Shown here: positions 1,578 to 24,000 of the stretch, one piece after another
Position numbering within the stretch: position 1 is the stretch's first letter
Layout of the letters: each line of letters starts with the position of its first letter
Origin: an archaeon
GTDB taxonomy: Archaea > Asgardarchaeota > Heimdallarchaeia > Heimdallarchaeales > Kariarchaeaceae
Assembly (NCBI GenBank): GCA_024280435.1
Contig: JAJRQD010000018.1
Location: 3,868-27,867, forward strand
DNA length: 24,000 bases
Direction: 5' to 3'
Position numbers and translations under genes: made by a program
The notes under the pieces: generated by a model
The model's database searches: none
Told to the model about the DNA's origin: nothing
Seen by the model: the letters and a program-made list of their open reading frames with translations, nothing else

Positions 1578-3062
1578 ATGTCAACACCTGAAACATCACC
1601 GATCAGATTAATTATGTTCACATCAAAAGATTGCGTGTATTGTCCACCAGTTGAATCTATTGTACGAGAGGTAATTGGCAGTGGAATGCAGGAAATTGTT
1701 CATGTATCCACTATTGATATCGATGTTGATAAAGAGTCTGCATCTCAATATCATATCAATGCATTGCCAACACTTGTGATCAATGATGAAATAGTACTAG
1801 AAGGTGGTATGGAGGATGAAGCTGTTAGAGACCTCCTATGGTCAACATTGCTCAATTATGCATTCACATCAGGTGAAACAGAGGAATTAATGAAATCGGC
1901 ACTTTTAACTATTACTATGAATTCTATTGATTCTTTGAATAATACATCGATATTACGTCCATCAGTTGGGGATTATGCACATATTAGCACATATCAGTTG
2001 AATTTACTAAGTCTATACAGTCTTGATCCATTGATACCTCATTTTCTTTATCGTGCAGGTTACAAATTAGGAATGTATGGTATAATGCACCACATCTTAT
2101 TAACATTGAATCCAAGCCTTGGTAGAACACCTAAAAGAAAGATGAGATTTTCCAAACTTGGTAAAGCACTTGAATTATACTTCTCTAATAGAGAGATTTA
2201 TTCCACCAAGATTGCACATGGGGCACATGTGGTAGAGCAAACTGAGAATACAATTCATCTGAAAGTATCTGAACTGGCTTCATCATCAATTGGGATAGAT
2301 GTTGGTGAACCAATGTGTGGATTCACAGCAGGACAGTTAGCAGGTGTGACAGTAGCAGTTATGGGTACTGACGCTAGTTGTGAGGAACAGATTTGTCTGG
2401 CCAATGGAGGCGATTTTTGTTTATTCAAAATATCAATTGATCAAGCTTTTAAGAAACCAACATTACCACCCCTTGAAGACAAAGATGAGAGAACTATAAG
2501 AAAGCAAAATTTCTATGAAGTAATTCATGAAACTACTAAAATTATTGAAGATAGTTTGTTGATGCGTAAAGCTCAAAGACATAATGCAGGTGATTTTATT
2601 CATATATCTGTAATACAGCCGATAATTATTACACTCAAACTATTAGATAGATTATCAGGAGTTTTATTGTATTCCGGCGGTAGAGAATTAGGTATTTTTG
2701 GTTCAGGTAAGAATTTACTTTACAGATTAGTTGAAGAAAAAGGAAGTAATGGTATTGTATCACTTGAAGAAGGGATTAGTCTGTTATATGATTATCTAAC
2801 TCATCCTACCAGTCATTTAAGTCGAGATTATGGTAGAGTAAGATCAATAAAAATCGATGAGAAAACATATCATATTGAAATTGAGGAGAACCTCTATGTA
2901 TCGGGTATGAATGTAACAAATTTAGATAAAACATTCTGTGATTTTCAAGCTGGATTTTTTGCAGGTAGATTACAAATTTTGATAGGAACTGAGCCACAGG
3001 TAAAAGAGATCAAATGTCAGGGAAATGGAAACGATATCTGTATATTTGAAGTAAAAATCTGA
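1578..3062 (+). CDS. Thioredoxin/glutaredoxin-fold domain fused to two V4R (4-vinyl reductase-like) domains
   Basis: The N-terminus has CxxC ('DCVYCPP') plus 'ALPTLVINDE', a Trx-fold signature. Each of two halves ends in a V4R Cys pattern: 'CGFTAGQLAGV...EEQICLANGGDFCLFKI' and 'CDFQAGFFAGR...EIKCQGNGNDICIFEV'. Confidence 0.7.
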   Translation: MSTPETSPIRLIMFTSKDCVYCPPVESIVREVIGSGMQEIVHVSTIDIDVDKESASQYHINALPTLVINDEIVLEGGMEDEAVRDLLWSTLLNYAFTSGETEELMKSALLTITMNSIDSLNNTSILRPSVGDYAHISTYQLNLLSLYSLDPLIPHFLYRAGYKLGMYGIMHHILLTLNPSLGRTPKRKMRFSKLGKALELYFSNREIYSTKIAHGAHVVEQTENTIHLKVSELASSSIGIDVGEPMCGFTAGQLAGVTVAVMGTDASCEEQICLANGGDFCLFKISIDQAFKKPTLPPLEDKDERTIRKQNFYEVIHETTKIIEDSLLMRKAQRHNAGDFIHISVIQPIIITLKLLDRLSGVLLYSGGRELGIFGSGKNLLYRLVEEKGSNGIVSLEEGISLLYDYLTHPTSHLSRDYGRVRSIKIDEKTYHIEIEENLYVSGMNVTNLDKTFCDFQAGFFAGRLQILIGTEPQVKEIKCQGNGNDICIFEVKI

Positions 3063-3639: not shown

Positions 3640-4215
3640 TTGGAGGAAAAATGTATTACAAGCGAAAGACGTAAAATATTCAAAATTGTGCTCTTAGGCG
3701 ATGGTGCCGTTGGAAAGACTGCACTGCGACACAGATATCTGGGGGACGGCTTCCAGCAATCATATTCAATGACCATAGGGGCTGATTTCGCTGTGAAGAG
3801 GGTCAATCTTGATGGTGAAGAGGTAGTTGCTCAGATCTGGGATCTTGCGGGTCAGATTAGATTTCAATCTGTGCGTGAGGTATATTATCAGGGGGCCACA
3901 GGAGCGTTACTAGTATTTGATATAACAAGATCACCAACTTTTGAAAATATACCCAATTGGATAACAGAGCTTTTAGATAATAATAAAAATAAGATTGTGC
4001 CAATGGTGCTTATAGGAAATAAAAGTGACCTAAGAAATACAGCAGATGGTGCGATTACATATGATGCAGGATTAGAGTATGCACAGAATTTATCTGCATG
4101 GAGCCACTTTGAGATACCTTATATTGAGACTTCAGCACTATCTGGAGATAATGTGGAATCTGGATTTGCGGTTTTACTTAGAAATATAGAAAATTTTCTA
4201 GATTCTTCAGGATAA
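3640..4215 (+). CDS. Rab-like small GTPase (Ras superfamily)
   Basis: G1 'GDGAVGKT', switch I 'TIGADF' (RabF1-like), G3 'WDLAGQ', 'YYQGATGALLVFDIT' (RabF4/5-like), G4 'GNKSDL', G5 'ETSAL'. TTG start; there is no in-frame ATG before G1. No C-terminal Cys. Confidence 0.85.
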   Translation: MEEKCITSERRKIFKIVLLGDGAVGKTALRHRYLGDGFQQSYSMTIGADFAVKRVNLDGEEVVAQIWDLAGQIRFQSVREVYYQGATGALLVFDITRSPTFENIPNWITELLDNNKNKIVPMVLIGNKSDLRNTADGAITYDAGLEYAQNLSAWSHFEIPYIETSALSGDNVESGFAVLLRNIENFLDSSG

Positions 4216-4799: not shown

Positions 4800-5324
4800 A
4801 TGAGTATTATAACTGATGAGCAGAGACAAACGCTTCTGAGTATGGTCGAAGACGTAGCTGGACCGGAAGTGCGAGAAGTCACCATAATTTTATTGACACA
4901 CAAGGGTGAGCTGACAGATGAGATCATTGCAGAGGAGCTAGATATAAAGTTGAATCAAGTTAGGAAGGCTCTGTATAAGTTGCATGATTTGGAGCTTGCA
5001 ACATTTAGGAGAATTAGGGATAAGACAACTGGATGGTTTATTTTTTACTGGAAATTGCATCCTGAGAAGATTACATCCTTGGTTAAGAAGAAACAGTTGA
5101 ATGTGTTGGATAAGATTCAGGCAAGATTGGAGTATGAGGAGGGAAATATGTTTTTTTCATGTTTGGAGGAAGGTTGTGAGAGGGTAACATTTCAAACTGC
5201 AATGGAGCAGGATTTTATTTGTCAGGCATGTGAGAAAAGGTTAGATTCTTTCGATAATACACAGATAGTGAGTGTACTTCAAAGAAAGGTGGAGCAGTTG
5301 AAAAAAATACTTAATATTGTTTAA
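4800..5324 (+). CDS. tfe: Transcription factor E (TFE, TFIIE-alpha homolog)
   Basis: Winged helix ('LTDEIIAEELDIKLNQVRKALYKLHDLELATFRRIRDKTTGWFIFYWKL') followed by a zinc-ribbon-like 'FFSCLEEGCERVTF...FICQACEKRL'. Confidence 0.85.
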   Translation: MSIITDEQRQTLLSMVEDVAGPEVREVTIILLTHKGELTDEIIAEELDIKLNQVRKALYKLHDLELATFRRIRDKTTGWFIFYWKLHPEKITSLVKKKQLNVLDKIQARLEYEEGNMFFSCLEEGCERVTFQTAMEQDFICQACEKRLDSFDNTQIVSVLQRKVEQLKKILNIV

Positions 5325-5404: not shown

Positions 5405-6127
5405 ATGATCGATAGTGATATAATAATTGCCGAGGAATACAGGTGGGTTTTTGATAATGAGCCTACTTTTCATTTGAATGGTAATGTTTTGAAGGGTAAG
5501 GTTGGAAGAACACCGGATGGAGATAGTATTGTGATCTCAATTACGGTACCTGAATTTTACCCGATTATTAAACCAGAAATAAAAGTAGTAACAAAGATTT
5601 CACATCCAGATATTGATGAGAATATGAATTTATCATTGCAGATGATGGATGAATGGGAACCTAGTTACAGATTGAGAGATATAATTGCGAATGCACGACG
5701 TCTTTTTATTAAATCAAAAAGATCAATTAGGTCAATTAAACCATCATTACCAAAGAGATCAATACAGGTTGAAGCATCATCTAGACTTGAAGATGAGATA
5801 TTAAGATTACAAAAACAGATTACTGAGTTGAATAAACAGATCACAGATGTGAAAACAGATAAACTTAAACAGGCTGGGATACAGCAATCTGCTGCATTTA
5901 AAGTTTCTGCATTTTCGGATTTAACTGCTCAGTTAAATGCTTTAGAAGATTTAATTGAGTTATTGGAAATTAAATTTGAAGATGCAGATATAGATCAAAC
6001 TGACTTTTTCAGATTATACAGGAAGTATATTAAGGAAAAATATGTTTGCACACAAAAATTATCAAAAATTGAGGTAGATAAAAATGACGTATCAAAGAAG
6101 AACGCAAAAAGACCAATTAGACATTGA
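5405..6127 (+). CDS. vps23: ESCRT-I Vps23/Tsg101-like protein: UBC-fold UEV domain (no catalytic Cys), coiled-coil stalk and steadiness-box-like C-terminus
   Basis: UBC-fold pattern 'PEFYPIIKPEIKVVTKISHPDIDENMNLSLQMMDEWEP' with Ser where E2 enzymes carry the active Cys. Coiled coil 'LEDEILRLQKQITELNKQITDVK'. The C-terminal 'DADIDQTDFFRLYRKYIKEKYVCTQKLSKI' resembles the Tsg101/Vps23 steadiness box. Confidence 0.75.
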   Translation: MIDSDIIIAEEYRWVFDNEPTFHLNGNVLKGKVGRTPDGDSIVISITVPEFYPIIKPEIKVVTKISHPDIDENMNLSLQMMDEWEPSYRLRDIIANARRLFIKSKRSIRSIKPSLPKRSIQVEASSRLEDEILRLQKQITELNKQITDVKTDKLKQAGIQQSAAFKVSAFSDLTAQLNALEDLIELLEIKFEDADIDQTDFFRLYRKYIKEKYVCTQKLSKIEVDKNDVSKKNAKRPIRH

Positions 6128-6698
6128 AGCAGACCTTTTTTCTGCTATTGCTACAATGGACCAGTTATCGAGATATTTCGATAAGGGACTAGTAGAAGGG
6201 ACTTTATACAAGAGACAACTAAAATCATGCATATCAGATGTATTTAAATCTAGAATTCAGCTTGAGAAACTTGGATTCAATATTGGAGAATTTATCAGTA
6301 GAGAAGATCTAGAGACAAAGTATCCTGAAGGATTGAGAAGACTAAATCTTGTAGAGGGAAGTGATGGTGAATCACTTGATTTTGAGCAAATTAAAGATTT
6401 ACCAAGAAAAACAGCTGATTATGTGGCAAATGCAATTGAGTTGATAGATCTATTAAAGTTAAAAACAGTAGCCAGAGTAGAGTATATTGTGCCATTGCTT
6501 GATGAGTTAATTAGTATTACTGGAAACTTCCCTAAACTTGGAAAAGAGCATTGGATCGGTACTGAGATAGAAGGTTGGCGAGATGAGTTGAAAGATGAAA
6601 AACCAAGTATGACACTTGGAGAGGAACGATGTGAAAAACTTGAATTCGATGCAGTCAGATGGCTGAATGAGTTTAGAAGAAATTTAAAGGAGATCTAG
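6084..6698 (+). CDS. vps28: ESCRT-I subunit Vps28
   Basis: The N-terminal helix 'EADLFSAIATMDQLSRYFDKGLVEGTLYKRQLKSCISDVFKS' and the C-terminal domain 'ANAIELIDLLKLKTVARVEYIVPLLDELI...GWRDELKD...LEFDAVRWLNEFRRNL' track eukaryotic Vps28 end to end. ATG 6084 overlaps the upstream gene by 44 nt. An alternative ATG at 6156 would remove conserved residues. Confidence 0.85.
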   Translation: MTYQRRTQKDQLDIEADLFSAIATMDQLSRYFDKGLVEGTLYKRQLKSCISDVFKSRIQLEKLGFNIGEFISREDLETKYPEGLRRLNLVEGSDGESLDFEQIKDLPRKTADYVANAIELIDLLKLKTVARVEYIVPLLDELISITGNFPKLGKEHWIGTEIEGWRDELKDEKPSMTLGEERCEKLEFDAVRWLNEFRRNLKEI

Positions 6699-6702
6699 AA
6701 AA

Positions 6703-7425
6703 ATGGGTCTAAGAGACATCGAAAGAAAAATACGTGCAAATAGTGCATATCAGAGAAAAGAAGCAGAACTGCTTTTAGATGAATTAGATCAGATGATTGA
6801 GAATGTCCAGACCTTAAAAAAACAACTCAAGAAATTTGAGAAGAAACATGGTAAAGAAATTACAGATAACAAGGATTACTACATGAAAATATCTGAATTA
6901 CGGGATAATTTGGGATTACCTGAAGAATTAGGAGTTTATGATTGGAAAGATAGCCCATCTTTCAGTGATAAATTTGGTAAAAGTGATTACTATGATCAAC
7001 TTGCACATGAAATACTTGAACTTGGTAAATTCGTCATTGCAGAGACAGGTGGATTGATATCAGTTGCAGAGATAGTTTTGAAAATAAATAAAAAACGACC
7101 TGGAAAATTAGTACCACCAAGAGATATAATTAAATCGTTAGAAAAATTAATCAAAGATAAATTGATCTCACCTCTACGTAAGCTCAAATCAGGAGTGCTT
7201 ATCGCAGAATTTGTCAATATTGAGATGTCTAAAGATCAAGAGGCGGTATTTAATCTGGCATCAAGACATGGTTTCTTAACCAAAGAATCTTTGATTATTC
7301 AACTCGGTTGGAATTCAGAAAGGGCCTCTAATATACTTGAAGAGTTAGTTACCAATGGCCTTGCATTGAAAGATGAATCATATCATGAGGGTACTAAGTA
7401 TTGGTTCCCAGGTCTTGGACAGTAA
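6703..7425 (+). CDS. vps22: ESCRT-II subunit Vps22/SNF8 (EAP30 domain)
   Basis: N-terminal helix 'LKKQLKKFEKKHGKEI', then 'DYYDQLAHEILELG...ETGGLISVAEI', then a second winged helix 'LGWNSERASNILEELVTNGLALKDES...KYWFPGL'. This is the EAP30/Vps22 pattern. The start is 4 nt after the Vps28 stop. Confidence 0.85.
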   Translation: MGLRDIERKIRANSAYQRKEAELLLDELDQMIENVQTLKKQLKKFEKKHGKEITDNKDYYMKISELRDNLGLPEELGVYDWKDSPSFSDKFGKSDYYDQLAHEILELGKFVIAETGGLISVAEIVLKINKKRPGKLVPPRDIIKSLEKLIKDKLISPLRKLKSGVLIAEFVNIEMSKDQEAVFNLASRHGFLTKESLIIQLGWNSERASNILEELVTNGLALKDESYHEGTKYWFPGLGQ

Positions 7426-7428
7426 AAT

Positions 7429-8097
7429 CTAAATTATTAATTTGAATGAATCTTTGGTGGAACCTACCCATTTTGCCCTACCCTCTTCCACTAATGTATC
7501 AAAAATCTCTACAAATTCAGAAATTGGTAATGTACTCCAATCCTCACCCATATTTTGTAGTTCATAAAAGGTCAACACCTCTGCCGCATATCCTGTATCA
7601 AATAAATATGCAACAATAATTTCTTTCCATTGTTCATTAGTTTTATAATATACCCTTACTATGATATGATGGTCATCAATCCATTTTGCCAATCCATTCT
7701 CAACCATATCATTAACAATAATATCGAGTTGAGGTTTTGTCAGTTGTTTTCTAATTTTATTATTATTAAATGGGAATTGATCTTGTAGTTCAATAATACT
7801 GATAATATGTAATTTGAAATGTGATGAATAATCAATAATTAATGTTTTCCAAGATTCTTTCCATGATTGAAGATGACCTGCATGAGTTGGTTGTATGAAC
7901 ATCCACGGTTTATTAACCCAACCAGGCAAGTTATTTATGAATTCTTCCAATTTATTGACAACTTTTTGTTCTGATACAACCTCTATCTTCTGTTTATTTA
8001 CTTGAATTGGTTCTGAAGGCTTTGTTATTGTATCTTTTTTATCAACAACTTTTGATATATCTTTTTTTTCTTTTCTAGGACGCTCCTTGACAGACAT
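7429..8097 (-). CDS. vps25: ESCRT-II subunit Vps25, with a Lys-rich N-terminal extension
   Basis: 'WMFIQPTHAGHLQSWKESWKTLII', 'FPFNNNKIRKQL', 'AKWIDDHH..VRVYYKTNEQWKEII', 'VLTFYEL' and 'EEGRAKWVG' follow the tandem winged-helix motif order of Vps25. The first ~50 aa are Lys/Glu-rich and look disordered. Confidence 0.85.
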   Translation of the reverse strand: MSVKERPRKEKKDISKVVDKKDTITKPSEPIQVNKQKIEVVSEQKVVNKLEEFINNLPGWVNKPWMFIQPTHAGHLQSWKESWKTLIIDYSSHFKLHIISIIELQDQFPFNNNKIRKQLTKPQLDIIVNDMVENGLAKWIDDHHIIVRVYYKTNEQWKEIIVAYLFDTGYAAEVLTFYELQNMGEDWSTLPISEFVEIFDTLVEEGRAKWVGSTKDSFKLII

Positions 8098-9590: not shown

Positions 9591-10394
9591 ATGATAAGAT
9601 ATGTATTCAAAATTTATTATTTAGGTAACAAATACACTGGATCACAAAGACAAGCTAATGGTCAAGGTGTTTTCAATCATGTGGAAATTGCATTTATCAA
9701 ATCAAATTACATTAATTCATTTAAAGAAAGTAAATTCATTGCAATGAGTAGAACTGATGTAGACGTTAGTGCACTATCAAATGTATTTGTGTTAGAATTA
9801 AAGAATACTCCTCATCTAAACAAAATCAACAAATTTCTACCCAAGGATAATTCTATAATTATTTATGATTACGCAGAGATTGATGCAGATTTTAATCCTA
9901 GACATGTGCATCATAAAGTATACAAATATATGATAGAAAATCCAAATCAAGAAATTATTAATAAATTAAACAGAATTAAACATTTTGAAGGCACTCATAA
10001 TTTCTCAAATCTTATCAAAAAAGATGGTGCAGGCACTAAAAATCCAATAAGTAATATTTATCAAATTGATATACAGAAAATAAATACAAATTTTATAATT
10101 ACATTCAAAGGTGATAAATTTGGAAGAGAGCAAATAAGAAAAATAATTGGATATATAACAGATGAGAAATTTCTTGATATTGAGCCAAATGAGATACTTA
10201 TTCCTTCAGAAATAGAGGTATCTTCTGCAGATCCACAATTTCTAGTTCTATTTGATACAAAATATGATGGTAAAATTGATTGGCACTTCAATCAAAAAAT
10301 ATTACAATTCAGTAATTTAATCAAAAATAATGAATATTCAATAAATATAAAACTGTATCAGACGAGTATGTTAAAATTTTTGTTAAATACATAA
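9591..10394 (+). CDS. truA: tRNA pseudouridine synthase A family (TruA/Pus1-like)
   Basis: 'RYVFKIYYLGNKYTGSQRQ' matches the TruA N-terminus ('..i.YdGt.f.G.Q.Q'). 'SRTDVDVSALSNV' is the catalytic RTD motif, although the usual GVHA is divergent. ATG 9591 lies 2 nt after the upstream stop; I treat the 9564 extension in the ORF track as spurious. Confidence 0.65.
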   Translation: MIRYVFKIYYLGNKYTGSQRQANGQGVFNHVEIAFIKSNYINSFKESKFIAMSRTDVDVSALSNVFVLELKNTPHLNKINKFLPKDNSIIIYDYAEIDADFNPRHVHHKVYKYMIENPNQEIINKLNRIKHFEGTHNFSNLIKKDGAGTKNPISNIYQIDIQKINTNFIITFKGDKFGREQIRKIIGYITDEKFLDIEPNEILIPSEIEVSSADPQFLVLFDTKYDGKIDWHFNQKILQFSNLIKNNEYSINIKLYQTSMLKFLLNT

Positions 10395-11176: not shown

Positions 11177-11251
11177 TGGGCCACGCCAGATTTGAACTGG
11201 CGACCTCACGGTTATCAGCCGTGCGCTCTAACCAAGCTGAGCTAGTAGCCC
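11177..11251 (-). tRNA. tRNA-Ile (anticodon GAU), no encoded CCA
   Basis: The reverse complement folds as GGGCTAC-TA-GCTC-AGCTTGGTTA-GAGC-G-CACGG-CTGATAA-CCGTG-AGGTC-GCCAG-TTCAAAT-CTGGC-GTGGCCC-A. All four stems pair (one G-U), the anticodon loop is CT-GAT-AA, and a T-run follows directly. Confidence 0.9.
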
Positions 11252-13532: not shown

Positions 13533-13925
13533 TTGAACAGCTTATTTAATACTCGATACAATAATTTTTTAGTGAATACATTCAATAATTATAATTACTA
13601 TAAATTATTACTGATAATTAGTAGTTTAACACCCTTGAAGACTAAAATACTGCTTATACTGTCACATATATCACCTAAACAATTAACTGCAACTGAATTA
13701 ACTGCCCTGCTTGGTTATTCAAAAAGCTCAAGGATAATCTACAGAGGAGTTCTAGATGAATTGGAGAAAGATCAATTAATAAAATTAGTAAAAATATCAA
13801 AGAAAAAGTATTCAATTCAAATAAACATTAATCATCCAATGATGAATATATTAAATGAGTTAAGCTATGAATTTGGTGAGGACTATTCTCAAAGACTACT
13901 AGATATTTTGGAGGATAGAGAATGA
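13533..13925 (+). CDS. Winged helix-turn-helix transcriptional regulator (ArsR/MarR-like)
   Basis: 'LKTKILLILSHISPKQLTATELTALLGYSKSSRIIYRGVLDELEKDQLIKLVK' has the HTH-plus-wing layout. There is no in-frame ATG before the HTH, so the start is non-ATG and uncertain (TTG 13533 or GTG 13569). Confidence 0.5.
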   Translation: MNSLFNTRYNNFLVNTFNNYNYYKLLLIISSLTPLKTKILLILSHISPKQLTATELTALLGYSKSSRIIYRGVLDELEKDQLIKLVKISKKKYSIQININHPMMNILNELSYEFGEDYSQRLLDILEDRE

Positions 13926-14470
13926 ACAGAATTAATATTAAATTATTAACCATATTTTTTATTATTATAACTATAATCAGCTATAATTTATTGTCATCAT
14001 TGCCAAATAAGGAAATTAATACTGAAGATCAATCTATTAATGAAGTAAGTGAATTGGAAGGTATTGATATTTCACCCACACCAAAGAGATCAATGCATAA
14101 TTTTGTGAGTTCAGTTATAATATCATCAGTTATCATTACATTATTAGCAATCTACTACCAATTTTTTACATTGAACTCTGAGATTAGGAATTACATATTA
14201 TCAGCATTAACACTTGCAGGCTTTAAAAAAACAATGATGAAATTTCCCTCATTGATTGTTAGTGATGAGATACAATTGAAAATAACTGGAATGAAAAAAA
14301 TAAAAATTATTATTACAGGTCCTTTTTATGATAATTATCAAGAATTTGGATTACAAAAAAATATTAACAAAAAACTATCTATTTTATCAAGTAGAATAAT
14401 ATCAGATATAGAATTGTTACCATTAAAATTATTGCTATTCAAAGAGTATATACTTGAAAATAACAAATAA
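13922..14470 (+). CDS. Hypothetical membrane protein (2 predicted TM helices)
   Basis: ATGA start/stop overlap with the wHTH gene. Hydrophobic spans are 'LLTIFFIIITIISYNLL' and 'FVSSVIISSVIITLLAIYY'. I recognise no family motif. Confidence 0.5.
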   Translation: MNRINIKLLTIFFIIITIISYNLLSSLPNKEINTEDQSINEVSELEGIDISPTPKRSMHNFVSSVIISSVIITLLAIYYQFFTLNSEIRNYILSALTLAGFKKTMMKFPSLIVSDEIQLKITGMKKIKIIITGPFYDNYQEFGLQKNINKKLSILSSRIISDIELLPLKLLLFKEYILENNK

Positions 14471-14566: not shown

Positions 14567-15100
14567 GTGAGTTACAAAGCGACATTCAAAATCTTACTTT
14601 TGGGTAACGGGGGCGTAGGTAAGACAGCAGTGGTACAGAGATTTGTTCATGGCAAATTTAAAGAGTCATATCAAATGACAATTGGCATGGAGCCCTATAG
14701 TCGCTATGAAACGATAAATGGAGTGAAAGTTGTATATTCCCTTTGGGATATTGCAGGACAAGAAAAATTCCGTGCAATGCGTCAGATATTTTTCCAGGGT
14801 GCTCGTGGTACGATAATTGTATTTGATCTAACACGAAGAGAATCTTTTGAAAAAATTGAAGAATGGATGGAGGAAAGTAAAGCAGAGGCCAATGATCAAT
14901 TATTTTTATTAATAGGAAATAAGAATGATTTGGAAGATGAAAGAGAGATTTCACTTGCGGAAGCTAATAATTTAGCAAATGAATTAGGTTTTATTGATTA
15001 TATAGAAAGTTCTGCAAAAACAGGAATGAATGTTGAAGCAGCTTTTACATTGCTTGGATCCAAATTACTAGAAAAGTATGCGCCTAAGAACAGAAAATAA
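14567..15100 (+). CDS. Rab-like small GTPase (Ras superfamily), second copy
   Basis: G1 'GNGGVGKT', switch I 'TIGMEP', G3 'WDIAGQEKF', 'FFQGARGTIIVFDLT', G4 'GNKNDL', G5 'SSAKTG'. GTG start. The C-terminus 'EKYAPKNRK' has no Cys. Confidence 0.85.
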   Translation: MSYKATFKILLLGNGGVGKTAVVQRFVHGKFKESYQMTIGMEPYSRYETINGVKVVYSLWDIAGQEKFRAMRQIFFQGARGTIIVFDLTRRESFEKIEEWMEESKAEANDQLFLLIGNKNDLEDEREISLAEANNLANELGFIDYIESSAKTGMNVEAAFTLLGSKLLEKYAPKNRK

Positions 15101-15110
15101 TAACTAGTCT

Positions 15111-15995
15111 TTATTTACTATCATTCTTGATTGATAATACAATTATCATAGAAAGCAACAAAAATAATATCCCAACCCATACTTTAAAATTATATCTTGT
15201 ACCAAGAATAAATTCAATTGTGAAAGGAATTGTCATCTGGAACAAAAGCAGTATAGAAGCAGAATTTGCACTGATTTCTTTTAATGCTTCAAAATACGCA
15301 ATAAATGCAATAATAGTGGAGAAAATAATTAACAATATCAACCACATAAATAATTCATTGTTCATAGGTACAAATAAATGTTCAAAAAATAAACCAAAAC
15401 TAAAGCTGACTATTGAGATAATTAATAGAACAATATAGAACAATGCAAATATATCCAGTTCTTTATTCTCAACAGTACTATATCTTGAAGTTGTAACAAT
15501 ATAGACTGCATAGCTAAAAGCAGATAATAATAGGAAAATAACACCAATAGTTGAAAGATTTTTACCAGAAAAGTTTTGATCAGATGTAATGGCAATTACA
15601 CCAATTATACCAATAATAATGGCGATAAAATGTTTAAGGTGAATAGTTTCTTTGAGAACAATAAATGATAGAAATGGTACAATAATTAGGAAAATTAATG
15701 ATAACAATGATGACAAACCAGGTGGAACTAACTTTTCTTGCCCCATATATTGTAAAGTTAATCCAATTGCTTCTGATACACCAATCATCCATACCCATTT
15801 ATTATTAATCATCTTTATGATTATATCTTTTTTATTTTTCATAAATGGGGTGACTACAATGAATGAAATGAAAAATCTGAGAAATAAGAATGTATATGGT
15901 CCAATAATTCGAAGACCTTGTTCTATAAAAATAGTTGAGAGACCCCATCCAAATATTGCAATTGCAATTGCACCATAACTTCTAACACTTGCCAT
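15111..15995 (-). CDS. EamA/DMT-superfamily transporter (10 TM)
   Basis: Starting from ATG 15995 the product begins 'MASVRSYGAIAIAIFGWGLSTIFIEQGL' and contains two EamA-like halves. The 108-codon upstream extension in the ORF track overlaps the divergent DUF371 gene and looks non-coding. Confidence 0.75.
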   Translation of the reverse strand: MASVRSYGAIAIAIFGWGLSTIFIEQGLRIIGPYTFLFLRFFISFIVVTPFMKNKKDIIIKMINNKWVWMIGVSEAIGLTLQYMGQEKLVPPGLSSLLSLIFLIIVPFLSFIVLKETIHLKHFIAIIIGIIGVIAITSDQNFSGKNLSTIGVIFLLLSAFSYAVYIVTTSRYSTVENKELDIFALFYIVLLIISIVSFSFGLFFEHLFVPMNNELFMWLILLIIFSTIIAFIAYFEALKEISANSASILLLFQMTIPFTIEFILGTRYNFKVWVGILFLLLSMIIVLSIKNDSK

Positions 15996-16083
15996 AGATT
16001 TACTTTTTTTTTGTGGTATTGAAGTTTTTAGTTCTGTCAGATAATTTAATATTATTATAAGTAAAAAATGTAAAAAAATATTG

Positions 16084-16500
16084 ATGAAATTTATTATAGA
16101 AGTAAAAGGACATCCAAATATAATTGGAAGGCATAAAAGTACGTGGCAGATAACAAAGGACCCCCATTTAACGATCAAAGGGGACTGTATAATTGGAGTT
16201 TCAGCATCCAAAGGAGCAATAGATCTACCTTTTGAATTCAAGCAGCATCTAAAAGAGGAGAAATGGTATTTGGTATCAATCGAAATTGATGACAACAGCA
16301 TTATATCTGGAAGATTCAAAGGAAATAATCAAATGAAGTTGTCTAGCATAGATGATATGGTATTTAGAAAAAGTGAATTTGTATGTGATAGAACAATAGG
16401 TATCTCAGGAGAATTTGTAGCGAAAGATATCCCAAGAGATTTTATAAGAAGAATTAAAAATATGGATGTAAATTTCAAAATTTGTATTAGCTTTGATTAA
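16084..16500 (+). CDS. DUF371-family protein
   Basis: 'KGHPNIIGRHKSTWQITKDPHLTIKGDCIIGVSA' and 'MVFRKSEFVCDRTIGI' match the DUF371 pattern as I recall it (GH.NI..H.tT.EiT....Lt..GDCIiGv.A; iRKS.f.cdRT). Confidence 0.6.
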   Translation: MKFIIEVKGHPNIIGRHKSTWQITKDPHLTIKGDCIIGVSASKGAIDLPFEFKQHLKEEKWYLVSIEIDDNSIISGRFKGNNQMKLSSIDDMVFRKSEFVCDRTIGISGEFVAKDIPRDFIRRIKNMDVNFKICISFD

Positions 16501-17319: not shown

Positions 17320-19086
17320 CTATTCAAAAATGATATTCACAATATCAATTATATCTTTATAAATTAATTTTGGACGAACTAGTTTTTTATGCAGCAATTC
17401 CCATAGCTTACTATGAGCTTTTATCTCTTTCAAAAAATTATCCAATCTCTGAACTGCCATATGAAACGGTCCAATAAATGCATAACAACTGGTTAAATCA
17501 TCAATATTCTGAAAAATTAGATTATATTTTCCATATTTTATAGATTCAATTGATCCATTCTTACCTTTGATAGCATTTGAAATTCCGAGATCAGAGGCCA
17601 TTAAAAAGCCACCAATTAAATTTTTATTGATCACTTCATTGTTATTGAAACTTTTTGTAAACAAAGAAACACCTGTATTGTTTAATAATAAAATAAAAAC
17701 AGGTTCATCAAACTTATTTAATTTTACATTAATATTCTTTTTCTTTAATAATAAATTAAGAGTTTCATGAAGATTTTCTTCCTCAATTTTCTCTAAAACT
17801 GAATTATTGCTATCAATCAATAAATTATATCTCCGCATTTTATTTGTGAATGTTATTCGCTCTTCAGTTATAAATTCAAGCAGCTTCTCTAGATTTTGTG
17901 TTTCAGCAGTTTCATAAGCTTTCATAAGCATTAATTGTGCTTGCTTTAGATCTAGTTTTATCAGATTCAACCTATAAAGTAGTAAATAAGTTTTTGATAA
18001 TAAAGAATATGATTTTTGTTGGTTTGCAATTTCAATGAGAGTTTGGGTAATTACACCTAATTCATGTAAAATAATTTCATTTTTTATCATTTTATATTCA
18101 TATAACAATAGATCACAAAGGTTTAGCAAAACAAAAACATTAAGTTCATGATCAATTATATCATCAAATGCAATTTCTTTGAATATTTGAAGTGCATCTG
18201 ACCGTGAAATAATTCTATCTGATGATTTGATAATTGAAGCATTACAAATGTTATATCTGAGAGTAATTATTTTGGATGCACTTTCATCATTCAACTCAGA
18301 TAATTTATTAAAGTAAAGTTTTGCTTTTCCCAAATCATTAATTTCTAATGATAAATGAACTAATTCATACAATGTTTCTGCAAGAGACTCTTTGTTGTCT
18401 AATTTCATCCTTGAATTTAATGCTTTAAGGAAAAAGTTCAAAGATATTGATAAATCTCCCTTCATTCTATAGGACAGACCTATATCATGAAGACAATATG
18501 CTATGAGAATTTCATTATTCATCTGCATAAAAATTTGCATCGCTTCAAGGTTGTGCTCTAAGGCTAGATCTATTTCTCCTTTAATCTGATAAATGGTAGA
18601 AATATTAGCTAAACTGACGGCGATTCCTTGGGTATCATTAATATTTCGCCGAATTTTTAAACTTTGAAGATAATATTCTAATGCAGCATTCACATCACCC
18701 ATATATCTTGCATACAAACCCCTAATATTGTACAAGCTAGCTTCATATTTATAAAAATCATTATTTTTTGCAATTTCATCTATCTGTTCAATAAATAGTA
18801 TAGCCTCATTTATTGTGAATGCAGCATTATCATAATCAAATAACCTAATGTATGAAATTGATTTATTTAATATTCCACCTAAAACCTCAACTACAATATT
18901 ATCCTTACTAGCATTTCTTATGATTTCAAAAGATAAATTCAAGCATTCATTAAACTCACCTATTTTTTCGTATTTTTCAGCTATTTTATTTAGAATACTG
19001 TACTTATCATTACCAGATAAAACCATAGATAGCTGTTTTGCAGTCTCTAATTGCCCATTATTGATATATTCCAAAATCTGATTCAA
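17320..19086 (-). CDS. TPR-repeat protein with a C-terminal alpha/beta domain (longin/roadblock-like by pattern)
   Basis: Multiple TPR units, e.g. 'ASLYNIRGLYARYMGDVNAALEYYLQSLKI' and 'AVSLANISTIYQIKGEIDLALEHNLEAMQIF'. The last 130 aa (17323-17712) alternate strand and helix: 'PVFILLLNNTGVSLFTKSF...LIGGFLMASDLG...IESIKYGKYNLIFQNIDDLTSCYAFIG...'. TTG start; the true start is uncertain. Confidence 0.6.
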   Translation of the reverse strand: MNQILEYINNGQLETAKQLSMVLSGNDKYSILNKIAEKYEKIGEFNECLNLSFEIIRNASKDNIVVEVLGGILNKSISYIRLFDYDNAAFTINEAILFIEQIDEIAKNNDFYKYEASLYNIRGLYARYMGDVNAALEYYLQSLKIRRNINDTQGIAVSLANISTIYQIKGEIDLALEHNLEAMQIFMQMNNEILIAYCLHDIGLSYRMKGDLSISLNFFLKALNSRMKLDNKESLAETLYELVHLSLEINDLGKAKLYFNKLSELNDESASKIITLRYNICNASIIKSSDRIISRSDALQIFKEIAFDDIIDHELNVFVLLNLCDLLLYEYKMIKNEIILHELGVITQTLIEIANQQKSYSLLSKTYLLLYRLNLIKLDLKQAQLMLMKAYETAETQNLEKLLEFITEERITFTNKMRRYNLLIDSNNSVLEKIEEENLHETLNLLLKKKNINVKLNKFDEPVFILLLNNTGVSLFTKSFNNNEVINKNLIGGFLMASDLGISNAIKGKNGSIESIKYGKYNLIFQNIDDLTSCYAFIGPFHMAVQRLDNFLKEIKAHSKLWELLHKKLVRPKLIYKDIIDIVNIIFE

Positions 19087-20600: not shown

Positions 20601-20835
20601 TGAATCACTTCCTAAAAATAGGATGTATTTTTTAATATTTAAATATACCATTCAGGTACTGTACTCATAGTATAATTCTAAAATGATTATTTTGCTGAAA
20701 AACCACTTAAAAAAAATAAAAAATTTAATAATTAATTATAGAGATAACAACGTAAATATAAATGGAAATTTATGTATTATTATAGTGCTCATTTCAGTAA
20801 GGAACTTTAATATTTTAATATTTAAATTGAAAAAA

Positions 20836-21180
20836 ATGCTGAATAGTAATGAGAATATAGTTTTAGAACCAAAGAAAAAAATTGAAATAAAACTAAATAA
20901 AATTGAAAAACTATTTTTATCAAAAGTAAATACTTTGGAAAAATTATTAGAAAAAAATATATTATCTGATATTAATCAAAAAATAGGTAATGAACTACTA
21001 CAAAATGCCAACCATTTTCTAAATTCAGATTTTATTGGTAATAGTAAGATTAGATTAAAAAACGGAAGTATTAATTTATTAAAAGAAGATGATTTTTCAA
21101 TTTGGGTAAACAATGAATTGGCCTACTTAAATGAGGAAATTTCAGTTTTTATCAATGTTATTGAAAGGATGAACAAATAA
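20836..21180 (+). CDS. Hypothetical 114-aa helical protein, translationally coupled to the downstream giant ORF
   Basis: Its stop TAA (21178-21180) is followed by one base and then ATG 21182. I prefer ATG 20836 because the upstream 51 codons read like translated promoter DNA. I recognise no family motif. Confidence 0.4.
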   Translation: MLNSNENIVLEPKKKIEIKLNKIEKLFLSKVNTLEKLLEKNILSDINQKIGNELLQNANHFLNSDFIGNSKIRLKNGSINLLKEDDFSIWVNNELAYLNEEISVFINVIERMNK

Positions 21181-21181
21181 A

Positions 21182-24000
21182 ATGTATTCAAAATCAATTA
21201 TTACTGAAAATTATGATCCAAACATAAACTATCAATTTAGCTTTATATGGGAAAATTATCATCCAGGTGAAACATTAATCAGCTTCATCTCTGAATATTT
21301 AATGCCAAAGGTGGAAAAAAAAGTATTGGAAATTTTAACCTATGAAAAATATTTGATTCTTTTACATTGGGATAATAAAATACAATTAGGATATATCGTG
21401 ATAATTTCTTTTGAAGTTGAAAAGTATCTTGATGATTGTATTAATTTTGCAAAATCCTTGTGGGATTTAATTTTAACCCCAATAGAATCATATAAAAAAA
21501 ATGAAAATAAAGAATATGATTATTCTAATTCCAGTATGAACTATATTTTTGAAATAGATTGGATAAAAAGATCTTTAATGGGAGGTAAAATAGAATTTAC
21601 CATCGAGAAAAATCGTGAAAAATTTGTATCTCAATTTTCTAATTTCTTATATGTATTTAGATGGTCAGTGTATTCATTAGACTATGCTAATTTTGAACAA
21701 AACAGAGTAATTTTCCATTTTCATAATCAATTGATTGATCAAAAATATTTCACATTTGAAGAATATTTTTTGAAGATAACTGATTTTTCTGATAAACAAT
21801 TTCAATCTTTGATTGATAAAATAATTATATTATCATTTCAATTCGAAACAAAGAAAAGAATGGAAACATTTCTAAATAATTTCCATGTCATAAACAAATT
21901 AGTAGATACAGAAATCACAAAGATTGATAGAATTAGAATAATTAAAAGTAATATAGAAATGATGATAGCTATTGATAAAAAATATATAGTTAATAATCTA
22001 ACCAATATAGTTTTAAGTTTGCCAGATCAGCAAAATAATGAGATATTTATTGATGAATTGTTAGCTATTTCAGATATTTTAGAAAAAATTGGAATTCAAG
22101 AAAATGAAGACATAATAAAATTAATTGATGGTACAATTCTTGACATAGTTATTAATAGCAATAACATTGATAAAAATGAATATATAATGAAATTGACACA
22201 CAAGTCTTTAAACTGGGGTTTAGATCATTTTATAGGTTATTTAAATTTAATAATTAATATTTTCAGCAAAGATAATATAAAGCTATTATTACAAATAGCA
22301 GGTGAATTTGAGAAAGAGCTTATAATTACAAATAAAGGTATTTCATGCCTAGTTCATATAAATGAAAATTGTGGTGAATTTTCAAAAGCAATTGAATTAA
22401 GATTATTAGCCATTAACCTCAATAAAGATGAAACATCAAAATTTTATGATACAATTAATAGTTTAATTGAAATAGCAAGCTACAAAGAAATTAGTTTGCA
22501 AATTTTTGAAAGTGAAATAATCAAATATTTTGGATATATTTTAACAAATTTTCCAGATAAAGAGATATTAGAAATATATTTTAATGAGTTGATCACTAAA
22601 TTTTTAGATAATAATCATACTGAAATTGTAATATCATTTATAAGATGGATACAAAATAATATTGAGAATATTGAAAATAACGAAAGGTTAAATTTATTTA
22701 AAATACTCAATTCAACAATACTAAAATATCCTGAACTCAATAAAATTCAATTAAAATTTCAATTATTATACTTCAATCAATATTTAGATCAGTATTCAAA
22801 AAGTGATGATCAGAATTTATTAGAAAGTGCAGATAGATTATTAAAAAATATATTTAACCAAGCCGATCCTTTAGACAGTAAATACAAAGAAACCCTAACT
22901 ATAATAACACAATCACTTGTGCTATCTGCTTCTAAATATCAAGAATGGGAATTAATTCAAGAAGCCATTCATCGTTTTAGTTTATTAATGAATGATAAAA
23001 AATACTTTCAAAAAGCAATTACTAAAATTTATATCAATGCTGGGAAGTCTAGAAATCAAATCAAAATAATAGACAAAGATAAAAAAGATATTGGATTAAA
23101 AATATTTGATGAAACTATCAGATTGATTTCTAACAATCCAAATCAAATTAATTTAGCATTTTCTTTTCTTCCTGTTGCAAAAGAATTAGCGTTAAAATCA
23201 AATGATTTCAATAGATTCATGATTTATTCAACATTAGAAATGAATTTAAATAAAATTAATGGAAAACAATGGATAGACAGTTTAATTGAAGCCATATTAA
23301 ACCTGATAAATAAAAATTCAATAGATTATGCTCGACAACTATTTGAAGCAGGATTAAAAATTGATATGAATGAAAAGGAAGAATATGAATTACTGAGTAG
23401 ACAACTAGAATTAGCTGAATTAGAATTAGATATCGTTAATGTAGAAGAGATATCAATAAAAAGAAAAAGATTAATTGAATTAGCCGTAAACAATGAAGGA
23501 ATTGCAACTGAAGATGAAATAATAAACTCATTCCGAAATGGAATATCTGAGATAATGTCAAAGGGTAATACTCATTACTTACACTCCTTTTTACTAAAAG
23601 CAATCAAATTTGGAGTTGATAATAAAATAAATGATCTTACAGATTTTTATAATGCCCTTAAAGATAGTTTTAATGCAGTAATGAGTGATTATAAGGACAA
23701 TCATGATGAAAGTTCCTATTCAGAAATAATATTTATTTTGAGGGAATTATATAATATTTATCAACATAATGATAAAAATATTATATTCGAATATGCAACT
23801 ATTGTACTCAAAACAAATAATTTATTGTATAATAAAGATATGAATTTATCTAATTTAATAAAAAATTTATTTATTATAAAAGAGTTTACCAATTATTTTA
23901 GCACTCCAGACAGTATAGTTGAAGATGTTAAATTGGAAGAGTACATAAATACTGTCAAAGATATGTTTAATTTAGTTTCCAAAGAAAAAAATGTCTCAAC
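21182..24000 (+). CDS. Large (more than 939 aa) alpha-helical repeat protein with an N-terminal alpha/beta domain; 3' end beyond the window; absent from the supplied ORF track
   Basis: I read the frame codon by codon from ATG 21182 to base 24000 and found no stop in 939 codons, in DNA where stops should occur every 10-20 codons by chance. The protein begins MYSKSIITENYDPNINYQFSFIWENYHPGETLISFISEYL... and is Asn/Lys/Ile/Leu/Glu-rich. After about residue 110 it is a long run of amphipathic helices. I recognise no P-loop, metal or catalytic motif. Confidence 0.8.
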   Translation, partial: MYSKSIITENYDPNINYQFSFIWENYHPGETLISFISEYLMPKVEKKVLEILTYEKYLILLHWDNKIQLGYIVIISFEVEKYLDDCINFAKSLWDLILTPIESYKKNENKEYDYSNSSMNYIFEIDWIKRSLMGGKIEFTIEKNREKFVSQFSNFLYVFRWSVYSLDYANFEQNRVIFHFHNQLIDQKYFTFEEYFLKITDFSDKQFQSLIDKIIILSFQFETKKRMETFLNNFHVINKLVDTEITKIDRIRIIKSNIEMMIAIDKKYIVNNLTNIVLSLPDQQNNEIFIDELLAISDILEKIGIQENEDIIKLIDGTILDIVINSNNIDKNEYIMKLTHKSLNWGLDHFIGYLNLIINIFSKDNIKLLLQIAGEFEKELIITNKGISCLVHINENCGEFSKAIELRLLAINLNKDETSKFYDTINSLIEIASYKEISLQIFESEIIKYFGYILTNFPDKEILEIYFNELITKFLDNNHTEIVISFIRWIQNNIENIENNERLNLFKILNSTILKYPELNKIQLKFQLLYFNQYLDQYSKSDDQNLLESADRLLKNIFNQADPLDSKYKETLTIITQSLVLSASKYQEWELIQEAIHRFSLLMNDKKYFQKAITKIYINAGKSRNQIKIIDKDKKDIGLKIFDETIRLISNNPNQINLAFSFLPVAKELALKSNDFNRFMIYSTLEMNLNKINGKQWIDSLIEAILNLINKNSIDYARQLFEAGLKIDMNEKEEYELLSRQLELAELELDIVNVEEISIKRKRLIELAVNNEGIATEDEIINSFRNGISEIMSKGNTHYLHSFLLKAIKFGVDNKINDLTDFYNALKDSFNAVMSDYKDNHDESSYSEIIFILRELYNIYQHNDKNIIFEYATIVLKTNNLLYNKDMNLSNLIKNLFIIKEFTNYFSTPDSIVEDVKLEEYINTVKDMFNLVSKEKNVS

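Follow-up and report, generated by a model that had tools for sequence, protein, structure and literature searches.

A predicted longin-like and α-solenoid giant protein with a conserved small partner gene in Heimdallarchaeia

A giant gene, its family and its upstream partner

The 24,000-nucleotide window analyzed here, from contig JAJRQD010000018.1 of a heimdallarchaeial genome (Kariarchaeaceae; assembly GCA_024280435.1), ends inside a giant gene on the + strand (21182..24000, codons 1-939 of 1078, the window end preceding the stop) that follows directly behind a small gene on the same strand. Translation of the window bases from the ATG at 21182 gives 939 sense codons and zero stops, and the other five of the six frames over the same interval carry 46-147 stops each. 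The interval has a G+C content of ~23%; with the stop probability of 0.10 per codon derived from local composition, a stop-free run of 939 codons would arise by chance at ~6e-44. G+C at codon positions 1, 2 and 3 of the gene is 0.32, 0.20 and 0.17, a coding-like gradient. The frame is missing from the list of open reading frames (ORFs) because the lister skips ORFs that run off the source, as the initial annotation had supposed when it reported the open frame. That annotation was equally correct in calling this the largest gene in the window (the runner-up encodes 588 amino acids (aa)) and in placing its ATG one base past the stop of the upstream ORF (...AAA TAA A ATG...). The public protein collection contains an identical full-length protein of 1078 aa, with NCBI as its source, from a contig of 65,344 bp. 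Residues 1-939 are thus encoded inside the window, and the remaining 139 are known from the protein record only.

That the frame is a chance ORF, or an artefact of assembly or frameshift, has practically no probability, and we count this explanation as already refuted. Nothing was found in its favor, and against it stand the chance expectation given above, the identical 1078-aa product on record, a confident AlphaFold2 model (see below) and ~20 full-length colinear homologs in independent assemblies, including Heimdall LC_2. The initial annotation had allowed for an error that changes the frame; the relatives align end to end without breaks, and such unbroken colinearity across independent assemblies excludes a frameshift or chimera. 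The giant frame is a real gene.

Nor is the protein an orphan: with its relatives it makes up a conserved family confined to the Heimdall group. An exhaustive HMMER search of 1.84 billion cluster representatives recovered 20 proteins at E <= 1e-3, 15 of them at E <= 1e-30, nearly all of 1030-1100 aa and matching end to end at 19-38% identity. The initial annotation had suggested checking the distribution among archaeal genomes, and all members that carry names come from Candidatus Heimdallarchaeota or Kariarchaeaceae metagenome-assembled genomes or from Heimdallarchaeota LC_2; every annotated member is labeled 'hypothetical protein'. Across a 17-sequence alignment, from which all conservation figures for the family are taken, G346, A403 and W697 are invariant, and W23, G70, W161, L390, L742, R761, G787, E790 and E901 are near-invariant. 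Conservation extends from end to end and is highest at residues 331-390 and 781-810.

Known families offer no counterpart at the sequence level, which bears out the earlier remarks that the protein matches nothing that could be named and that it holds no recognizable enzymatic motif: no enzymatic or other family motif was detectable. No credible Pfam domain was found in the 17 members, and NCBIfam likewise gave no match for the giant protein. In PDB sequence searches, neither single-sequence nor profile queries found a match for the giant protein or for its N-terminal module (residues 1-215), for which Pfam returned nothing even at E <= 10; among the families absent from the Pfam results for the 17 members and from the PDB profile searches are longin, sedlin, sybindin and Robl. 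Word-seeded searches returned the query alone, whether started from the protein or from the 17-sequence profile, AT-rich low-complexity words saturating the seeding, and contig scans for the family found one locus in genome contigs and none in metagenome contigs. The alignment is too divergent to yield a search pattern. A mundane identity as a PBS-lyase HEAT or S-layer-associated repeat protein, which the initial annotation had named as a possible refutation, is not supported: there is no HEAT_PBS or S-layer match in Pfam or NCBIfam, and the N-terminus is a β strand, not a signal peptide. We found no description of the family in the literature, including a structure-based Asgard survey, coverage being incomplete and thus not proof of absence. 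The giant family, the way its parts are combined and the partner genes carry no annotation and, as far as found, no description; the component folds are already known, as is the class of Asgard multidomain longin proteins.

At one related locus (L006), the called start of the giant gene (1031 aa; 9881-10001) cuts the protein short. The homologous N-terminus (IYSRSVITENPNF...NWENNHPG) runs on upstream in frame with no ATG, GTG or TTG, and an ATA stands where the window has the giant-gene ATG, reflecting either a non-canonical start or a sequence variant.

The small gene upstream (20785..21180, +) encodes a helical protein of 131 aa, counted from a probable GTG start, and homology supports it in all 12 of the loci compared (the window, L001, L002, L003, L005, L006, L008, L009, L010, L011, L012 and L013), which cover the family's range of divergence, including Heimdall LC_2. 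The initial annotation had correctly recognized a gene here and had given it 114 aa from the ATG at 20836, a start that is probably too far downstream; a second alternative, the ATG at 20683, gives the longest ORF. The in-frame GTG at 20785 is probably the true start, since in full-length alignment to homologs the window copy is complete only from there. From this start the protein regains its basic N-terminal tail, and ~28 nucleotides (nt) upstream of the start lies an A/T-rich, TATA-like element.

Whether the small gene always adjoins the giant gene had been raised at the outset, and it does. A homologous gene of 117-131 aa (called as 85 aa in L006) lies directly 5' of the giant gene on the same strand in 12 of 12 loci, and among the neighbors of these loci only this partner is universal; it is an obligate upstream partner gene. 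The partner proteins are mutually homologous, nearly all pairwise BLASTP comparisons giving E values of 1e-4 to 1e-42, and share the motifs P-[RK]-K-K-[VI] and D-F-S-[ILV]-W behind a basic N-terminal tail, whose net charge ahead of the motifs is +2 to +7 in 10 of 10 sequences. By the gene calls, partner and giant gene overlap by 1-4 nt in four loci and are separated by 1-38 nt in six; the two outliers (+128 nt in L001 and -62 nt in L003) depend on the start calls. This pattern fits co-transcription and translational coupling of the pair, hereafter the cassette. A scan around the junction found no terminator-like and no above-chance promoter-like signal, but it relies on bacterial consensus motifs and says little about an archaeon. 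A search with a partner profile returned 19 proteins of 90-131 aa, all hypothetical, whose named members fall in the same narrow range (Heimdallarchaeota/Kariarchaeaceae); the partner has no Pfam or PDB match. An amphipathic membrane helix at the partner N-terminus is not supported, the hydrophobic moment lying more than one standard deviation above shuffled sequences in just 3 of 10 cases; the net positive charge is the one consistent property.

Predicted architecture and structural neighbors

AlphaFold2, run with the family alignment on the full 1078 aa, gave a model with a mean predicted local distance difference test score (pLDDT) of 86 and 1010 of 1078 residues at or above 70. The initial annotation had described an N-terminal α/β domain of ~100 aa followed by a continuous helical solenoid, and the model agrees. 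From it we confidently predict a longin-like domain, a second α/β lobe and a TPR-like solenoid in a single chain.

The longin-like domain comprises residues 1-105 (21182..21496, +), delimited by DSSP on the AlphaFold2 model, Foldseek and conservation. Its predicted elements run β-β-α-β-β-β-α-α (E2-10, E18-23, H30-43, E48-54, E57-64, E69-76, H79-98 and H101-105; pLDDT ~76-96), and it thus shows the element order, the five-stranded sheet and the lack of an N-terminal helix by which a longin is recognized. Longins have been described as a roadblock core minus its N-terminal helix plus an extra C-terminal helix (PMC10933270). Family-conserved residues of this lobe are W23, P28 and G29 (past β2), W63 and G70. 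A low-confidence linker (residues 106-124) leads to the second, smaller lobe, residues 125-200 (21554..21781, +), defined from the model of residues 1-215 and from conservation, with the order α-β-α-α-β-β-α, three strands and the conserved W161; it packs with the first lobe. Residues 1-215 modeled alone reach a pLDDT of 88.9 and a predicted template-modeling score (pTM) of 0.86, so that the two lobes appear to be one compact unit. The solenoid takes up residues 205-1078, of which 205-939 lie in the window (21794..24000, +; assigned from AlphaFold2, Foldseek and the alignment). It is predicted to form ~45 helices of 13-32 residues in an unbroken TPR-like array of roughly 870 residues, and it holds the three invariant residues of the family as well as the near-invariant L390, L742, R761, G787, E790 and E901.

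Foldseek searches of the PDB with the N-terminal module gave no match at E <= 0.001, the best being E 0.011. Of the top 50 matches, 39 are nevertheless longin or roadblock chains, as assigned from chain length and the description of each entry: Ykt6, VAMP7, Sec22b, sedlin, synbindin and other small TRAPP subunits, the SRX domain, LAMTOR subunits, DENND1A/B, Fuzzy/Inturned and MON1A/CCZ1. The first lobe is called longin-like here by its modeled topology and this enrichment, not by a significant score. The remaining matches are mostly PAS/GAF chains, and they raise the alternative that the N-terminal module is a PAS-, GAF- or profilin-like binder of a ligand or peptide that governs which partners attach to the TPR solenoid. 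The list does include PAS-GAF phytochrome and LOV chains at E 0.14-0.21, and the conserved W23, P28, G29, W63, G70 and W161 could line a pocket. Such chains make up just 5 of the 50 matches, however, with probabilities of 0.16-0.33 against up to 0.89 for longins; the order of secondary structure is that of a longin, and no PAS or GAF Pfam match appears at E <= 10. We therefore regard a sensor of this kind as very unlikely.

Three more specific identities were tried and rejected. In longins of the GTPase-activating protein (GAP) type (FLCN, NPRL2, SMCR8, C9orf72 and a Heimdall class), a GP motif lies in or at the end of the β1-β2 loop and adjoins an arginine finger (PMC12290439). In the giant family no GP is conserved before β2; the conserved dipeptide is P28-G29, past β2 at the start of α1 and present in 15 of 17 members. 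Nor is an arginine finger conserved in residues 1-215, where position 4, at the very N-terminus, is the sole column with R or K in >= 60% of sequences (12 of 17, with R in 8). The tri-longin Rab guanine-nucleotide exchange factors (RabGEFs; Mon1, Ccz1, Fuzzy, Inturned, HPS1/4) match at E 0.086-0.22 with a root-mean-square deviation (rmsd) of ~17 Å, and one longin-like lobe plus one three-stranded lobe, followed by an all-helical region, does not give their architecture. An ESCRT-binding module of the Vps28-C or steadiness-box type was sought in the giant protein by aligning the family profile with the Vps28 and Vps23-like proteins of the window in hhalign, which gave probabilities of <1%.

With the full-length model, Foldseek returned Ctr9, Ski3, the TPR arms of IFT-A, TTC7B, PRPF6, OGT, the anaphase-promoting complex (APC/C) and karyopherins, with E values down to 6.5e-8 and template-modeling (TM) scores of just 0.10-0.20; TPR scaffolds come out on top, and HEAT karyopherins are found too. 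Pfam TPR motifs are absent from the window protein and appear as single weak matches in 2 of 17 members (E 6e-4 and 1.5e-3). The initial annotation had recommended a comparison with adaptin, coatomer and HOPS/CORVET folds; none of these, and no large TRAPP subunit, is among the top 50 full-length matches. Membership in the adaptin, coatomer or HOPS/CORVET families was accordingly rejected, there being no such Pfam domain in the 17 members and neither β-propeller nor appendage in the model. Of the likeness to eukaryotic coat, adaptor, tether and GEF subunits proposed from the sequence, the part that survives is the longin topology of the N-terminal domain, with all scores weak (E >= 0.011); the solenoid resembles generic TPR/HEAT superhelices. 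The longin fold is thus what a GEF- or GAP-platform-like reading draws on, and a coat, adaptor or tether reading has no specific support. In the models, the resemblance to eukaryotic GTPase-regulator scaffolds is at the fold level only.

These matches frame the main rival to the interpretation that we put forward below, namely a generic assembly scaffold or chaperone of the TPR type, connected neither with GTPases nor with membranes. In that case the longin-like domain would serve only to dimerize or to bind a partner such as the small helical protein, and the solenoid would organize some other cytosolic complex, as Ctr9, Ski3, TTC7 and the APC/C TPR subunits do. That Ctr9/Paf1C, Ski3, TTC7B, PRPF6, APC/C and OGT TPRs head the full-length list, and that the N-terminal module has no conserved catalytic residue, are what one would expect of such a scaffold. 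The low TM scores to these proteins, however, indicate likeness to a repeat class and not to a particular complex, and a generic scaffold leaves unexplained both the enrichment of GTPase-platform folds among the N-terminal matches and the confinement of the family to a lineage rich in trafficking-like proteins. On balance we consider it rather unlikely, if far from negligible.

The AP/COPI-F/TSET heterotetramer pairs a large solenoid subunit with a longin sigma or mu subunit, and the presence of a longin and a solenoid in a single chain could mimic half of such an assembly. In this proto-coat or adaptor-like unit the basic small partner would mediate membrane contact, and the positive charge of its tail in all ten sequences, the ESCRT genes near the cassette in two loci (see below) and published reports of patchy adaptor-like proteins in Asgard archaea can all be cited for it. 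Against it, the top 50 structural matches contain no adaptin, coatomer or TSET chain, the repeats are TPR-like rather than adaptin HEAT/ARM, the 17 members have no Adaptin_N or Clat_adaptor_s Pfam match and no appendage domain, and the hydrophobic moment of the partner N-terminus is not above that of shuffles in 7 of 10 sequences. A proto-coat is in our estimation a decidedly improbable reading.

Gene neighborhood of the cassette

Downstream of the giant gene, in 9 of the 11 loci that have downstream sequence, lies a gene for a β-rich protein of ~105 aa with an invariant W-P-x-P-x-W motif and no Pfam or PDB match. Its orientation varies. The spacing is 9-225 nt in seven loci (L001 11505-11828, L002 13281-13610, L006 13237-13566 and L009 7460-7786; on the - strand, L003 13297-13593, L012 3827-4189 and L013 13652-13969) and 3.2-3.6 kb in two (L008 and L010). 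In our window this gene probably lies just past the end. It is followed in six loci by a well-conserved ~430-aa protein with a weak DHH/DHHA1 match and a ~90-aa protein (57-68% identity). Both have the look of housekeeping genes that synteny has preserved, and neighbors of this kind count in favor of the generic scaffold.

Small GTPase genes bear on both the generic scaffold and the alternative of a GTPase-linked complex. The window encodes two Ras/Rab-family small GTPases, at 3640-4215 (+) and 14567..15100 (+), with Pfam Ras matches at E 2e-48 and 5e-50; the second lies 6 kb upstream of the cassette and is given here as context. Only L002 and L006 have its ortholog close to the cassette, at 2.4-3.3 kb, and Ras-family genes near the cassette are thus confined to three loci of one clade (the window, L002 and L006). 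The other nine of the 12 loci have no GTPase gene near the cassette, as a generic scaffold would allow. Beside this GTPase gene, the window carries genes for an uncharacterized 130-aa protein (13533-13925, +; 64% identical to its L002 ortholog) and an uncharacterized 182-aa protein with a hydrophobic N-terminus (13922-14470, +), a pair that is conserved at the same place in L002 and L006. On its other side, the 402-aa TTG-started ORF at 15111-16319 (-) is probably over-extended: its EamA orthologs in L002 and L006 have 283-295 aa, and the Pfam EamA match begins at residue 117. A Robl_LC7 gene is found near the cassette in one locus (L008), where the upstream segment 1016-3176, on the cassette strand, encodes a Robl_LC7 protein (170 aa), a KaiC-like ATPase (263 aa) and a coiled-coil protein with a winged helix-turn-helix (253 aa).

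ESCRT-I/II genes occur within 4-15 kb of the cassette in two loci, the window and L008. In the window these are a UEV/Vps23-like gene with a Vps23-core match (5405-6127), Vps28 (6084-6698), EAP30 (Vps22/36; 6703-7425) and Vps25 (7429-8097, -); the segment 5405-8097, with 4800-5324, carries a complete Asgard-type ESCRT-I/II cluster and, beside it, TFIIE-alpha. In L008 the ESCRT block is 4-5.5 kb from the cassette. In the three loci whose family members diverge most, the gene directly before the cassette encodes a canonical E2 (ubiquitin-conjugating) enzyme with an intact HPN...C motif: L005 (8838-9308, -) and L010 (6463-7449, -), both divergent in orientation, and L011 (2-112).

The 588-aa TPR protein of the window (17320..19086, -), again listed as context, ends in an α/β domain of ~130 aa and is found near the cassette, at 0.4-6.6 kb, in 4 of 12 loci (the window, L002, L006 and L008). 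This C-terminal domain is 45-66% identical among them, with invariant LIGGFLMAS and SIESIKYGKY, and its sequence suggests a β-β-α-β-β-β-α pattern resembling longin/roadblock; it has no Pfam or PDB match. At the level of sequence profiles, hhalign gave no signal that this domain is a paralog of the giant N-terminal module (probability 0.1%), and a relationship between the two whole proteins was rejected (<1%).

Elsewhere the window encodes TFIIE-alpha and a GINS subunit, a 494-aa protein with an N-terminal thioredoxin and two V4R domains (1578-3062, +) and, as its sole RNA gene by Rfam and ARAGORN, a tRNA-Ile (GAT) at 11177-11251 (-). In published work the V4R superfamily is related to TRAPPC3/Bet3. 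The gene content of the window and the named homologs of the giant protein and its partner point to an AT-rich archaeon of the Heimdall group as the source.

Interpretation and comparison with known systems

Our tentative interpretation, possible although somewhat short of probable, is that the cassette encodes a cytosolic longin-platform scaffold complex, not an enzyme, in the Asgard GTPase and ubiquitin-ESCRT network. The giant protein would be the main subunit of a cytosolic module restricted to Heimdallarchaeia, most likely bound by the ~130-aa basic helical partner, and the ~105-aa β-rich protein may be a third component. By analogy with well-studied longin/roadblock platforms, a small GTPase, or else a further longin/roadblock domain, would dock on the N-terminal module, and other proteins would be recruited along the extended surface of the solenoid. 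The whole could then act as a regulator or effector scaffold in the membrane-remodeling network of Asgard GTPases, ubiquitin and ESCRT. Longin/roadblock dimers are known as platforms for small GTPases, and Asgard proteins that combine longin domains with TPRs have been tied to ESCRT (PMC10933270, PMC10936438). In favor of this reading we count the conserved gene pair, the predicted architecture with its longin order and the enrichment of longin/roadblock chains among the N-terminal matches, and, as hints at the network, the Ras-family genes near the cassette in three loci, Robl_LC7 in one, ESCRT-I/II in two and E2 in three. That the products form a complex, that a GTPase binds to it and that it is tied to membranes or ESCRT are what we infer here.

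Several points weigh against this scaffold complex. Longin folds also serve in roles unrelated to GTPases, as in SNAREs, AP sigma and mu subunits and SRX. The longin matches, at E 0.011-0.2 and TM 0.2-0.37, place the assignment at the fold level only, and sequence-profile searches matched no family at all, longin and roadblock included. No catalytic signature is conserved in the N-terminal module, neither arginine finger nor GP motif. The three loci with a small GTPase gene near the cassette belong to a single clade and share inherited synteny, so they amount to approximately one observation. Asgard GTPases are in general not found in operons with their putative regulators (PMC10933270), which makes gene context uninformative either way. 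The proximity of ESCRT and E2 genes could itself reflect chance conservation of gene order.

Asgard archaea, and Heimdallarchaeia especially, have been intensively searched for precursors of the eukaryotic endomembrane machinery, and the complexes that serve eukaryotes as GEFs, GAPs, adaptors and tethers are repeatedly built from longin/roadblock platforms and α-solenoids. The giant family appears to join a longin-like platform and an α-solenoid in one chain, has an obligate small partner gene and, in some genomes, has ESCRT-I/II, E2 or Ras-family genes as neighbors. It is quite unlikely, in our judgment, that the cassette encodes a Heimdallarchaeia-specific complex of membrane-trafficking type, whether a self-sufficient regulator, of several subunits, for an Asgard Ras/Rab/Arf-like GTPase or a fused longin and solenoid unit resembling half of AP/COPI/TSET or large TRAPP subunits, working with ubiquitin and ESCRT; its members would be the basic helical subunit, the longin-solenoid giant and perhaps the ~105-aa β protein. 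If true, the plan on which eukaryotic coats, adaptors and GEFs are built would gain a further prokaryotic instance, in an archaeal lineage among the closest to eukaryotes. Should the protein instead be a generic TPR scaffold, it would be one more lineage-specific 'dark' family, of value mainly for annotation. Although it has no demonstrated eukaryotic homolog and its function is one that we infer, the giant protein is a well-defined, testable candidate for specialists in eukaryogenesis, and the cassette is a small expressible set of two or three genes that bears on GTPase-regulated scaffolds beyond the known eukaryotic signature proteins.

Among known systems, the longins of eukaryotic trafficking (Ykt6, VAMP7, Sec22b, TRAPPC2/sedlin, TRAPPC1/C4 and the SRX domain of SRalpha) have the same bbabbbaa order as that predicted for residues 1-105 and are their top PDB neighbors, at weak scores. 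They differ in being small or linked to SNAREs, none carrying a solenoid of ~870 residues, and no sequence-profile similarity to the giant protein was found. The GTPase regulators Mon1-Ccz1, Fuzzy-Inturned/CPLANE, DENN, LAMTORs, FLCN, NPRL2 and SMCR8 offer a parallel in layout: an N-terminal longin platform, a larger multidomain protein and small partner subunits. The two-lobe module of the giant protein aligns over ~290-320 columns with Fuzzy, Inturned and MON1A/CCZ1, at an rmsd of ~17 Å and a probability of 0.14-0.21; unlike these regulators, it is without three longin domains, without DENN and without a GP motif and arginine finger. Large TPR scaffolds (Ctr9, Ski3/TTC37, TTC7 and the IFT-A arms) have no N-terminal longin module and differ in detail from the giant protein (TM 0.10-0.20, 9-14% identity), yet they share its predicted repeat class and a similar length of uninterrupted superhelix (E 6.5e-8 to 1e-4). 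Finally, Makarova et al. (2024) described Asgard-specific multidomain longin/TPR proteins associated with ESCRT (PMC10936438). Those proteins differ from the giant protein in carrying a Vps28-C domain, a steadiness box or an adaptin appendage (PMC10936438); they have in common with it the same group of organisms, the combination, predicted for the giant protein, of a longin with TPR-like repeats and a location near ESCRT-I/II genes, which for the cassette holds at two loci.

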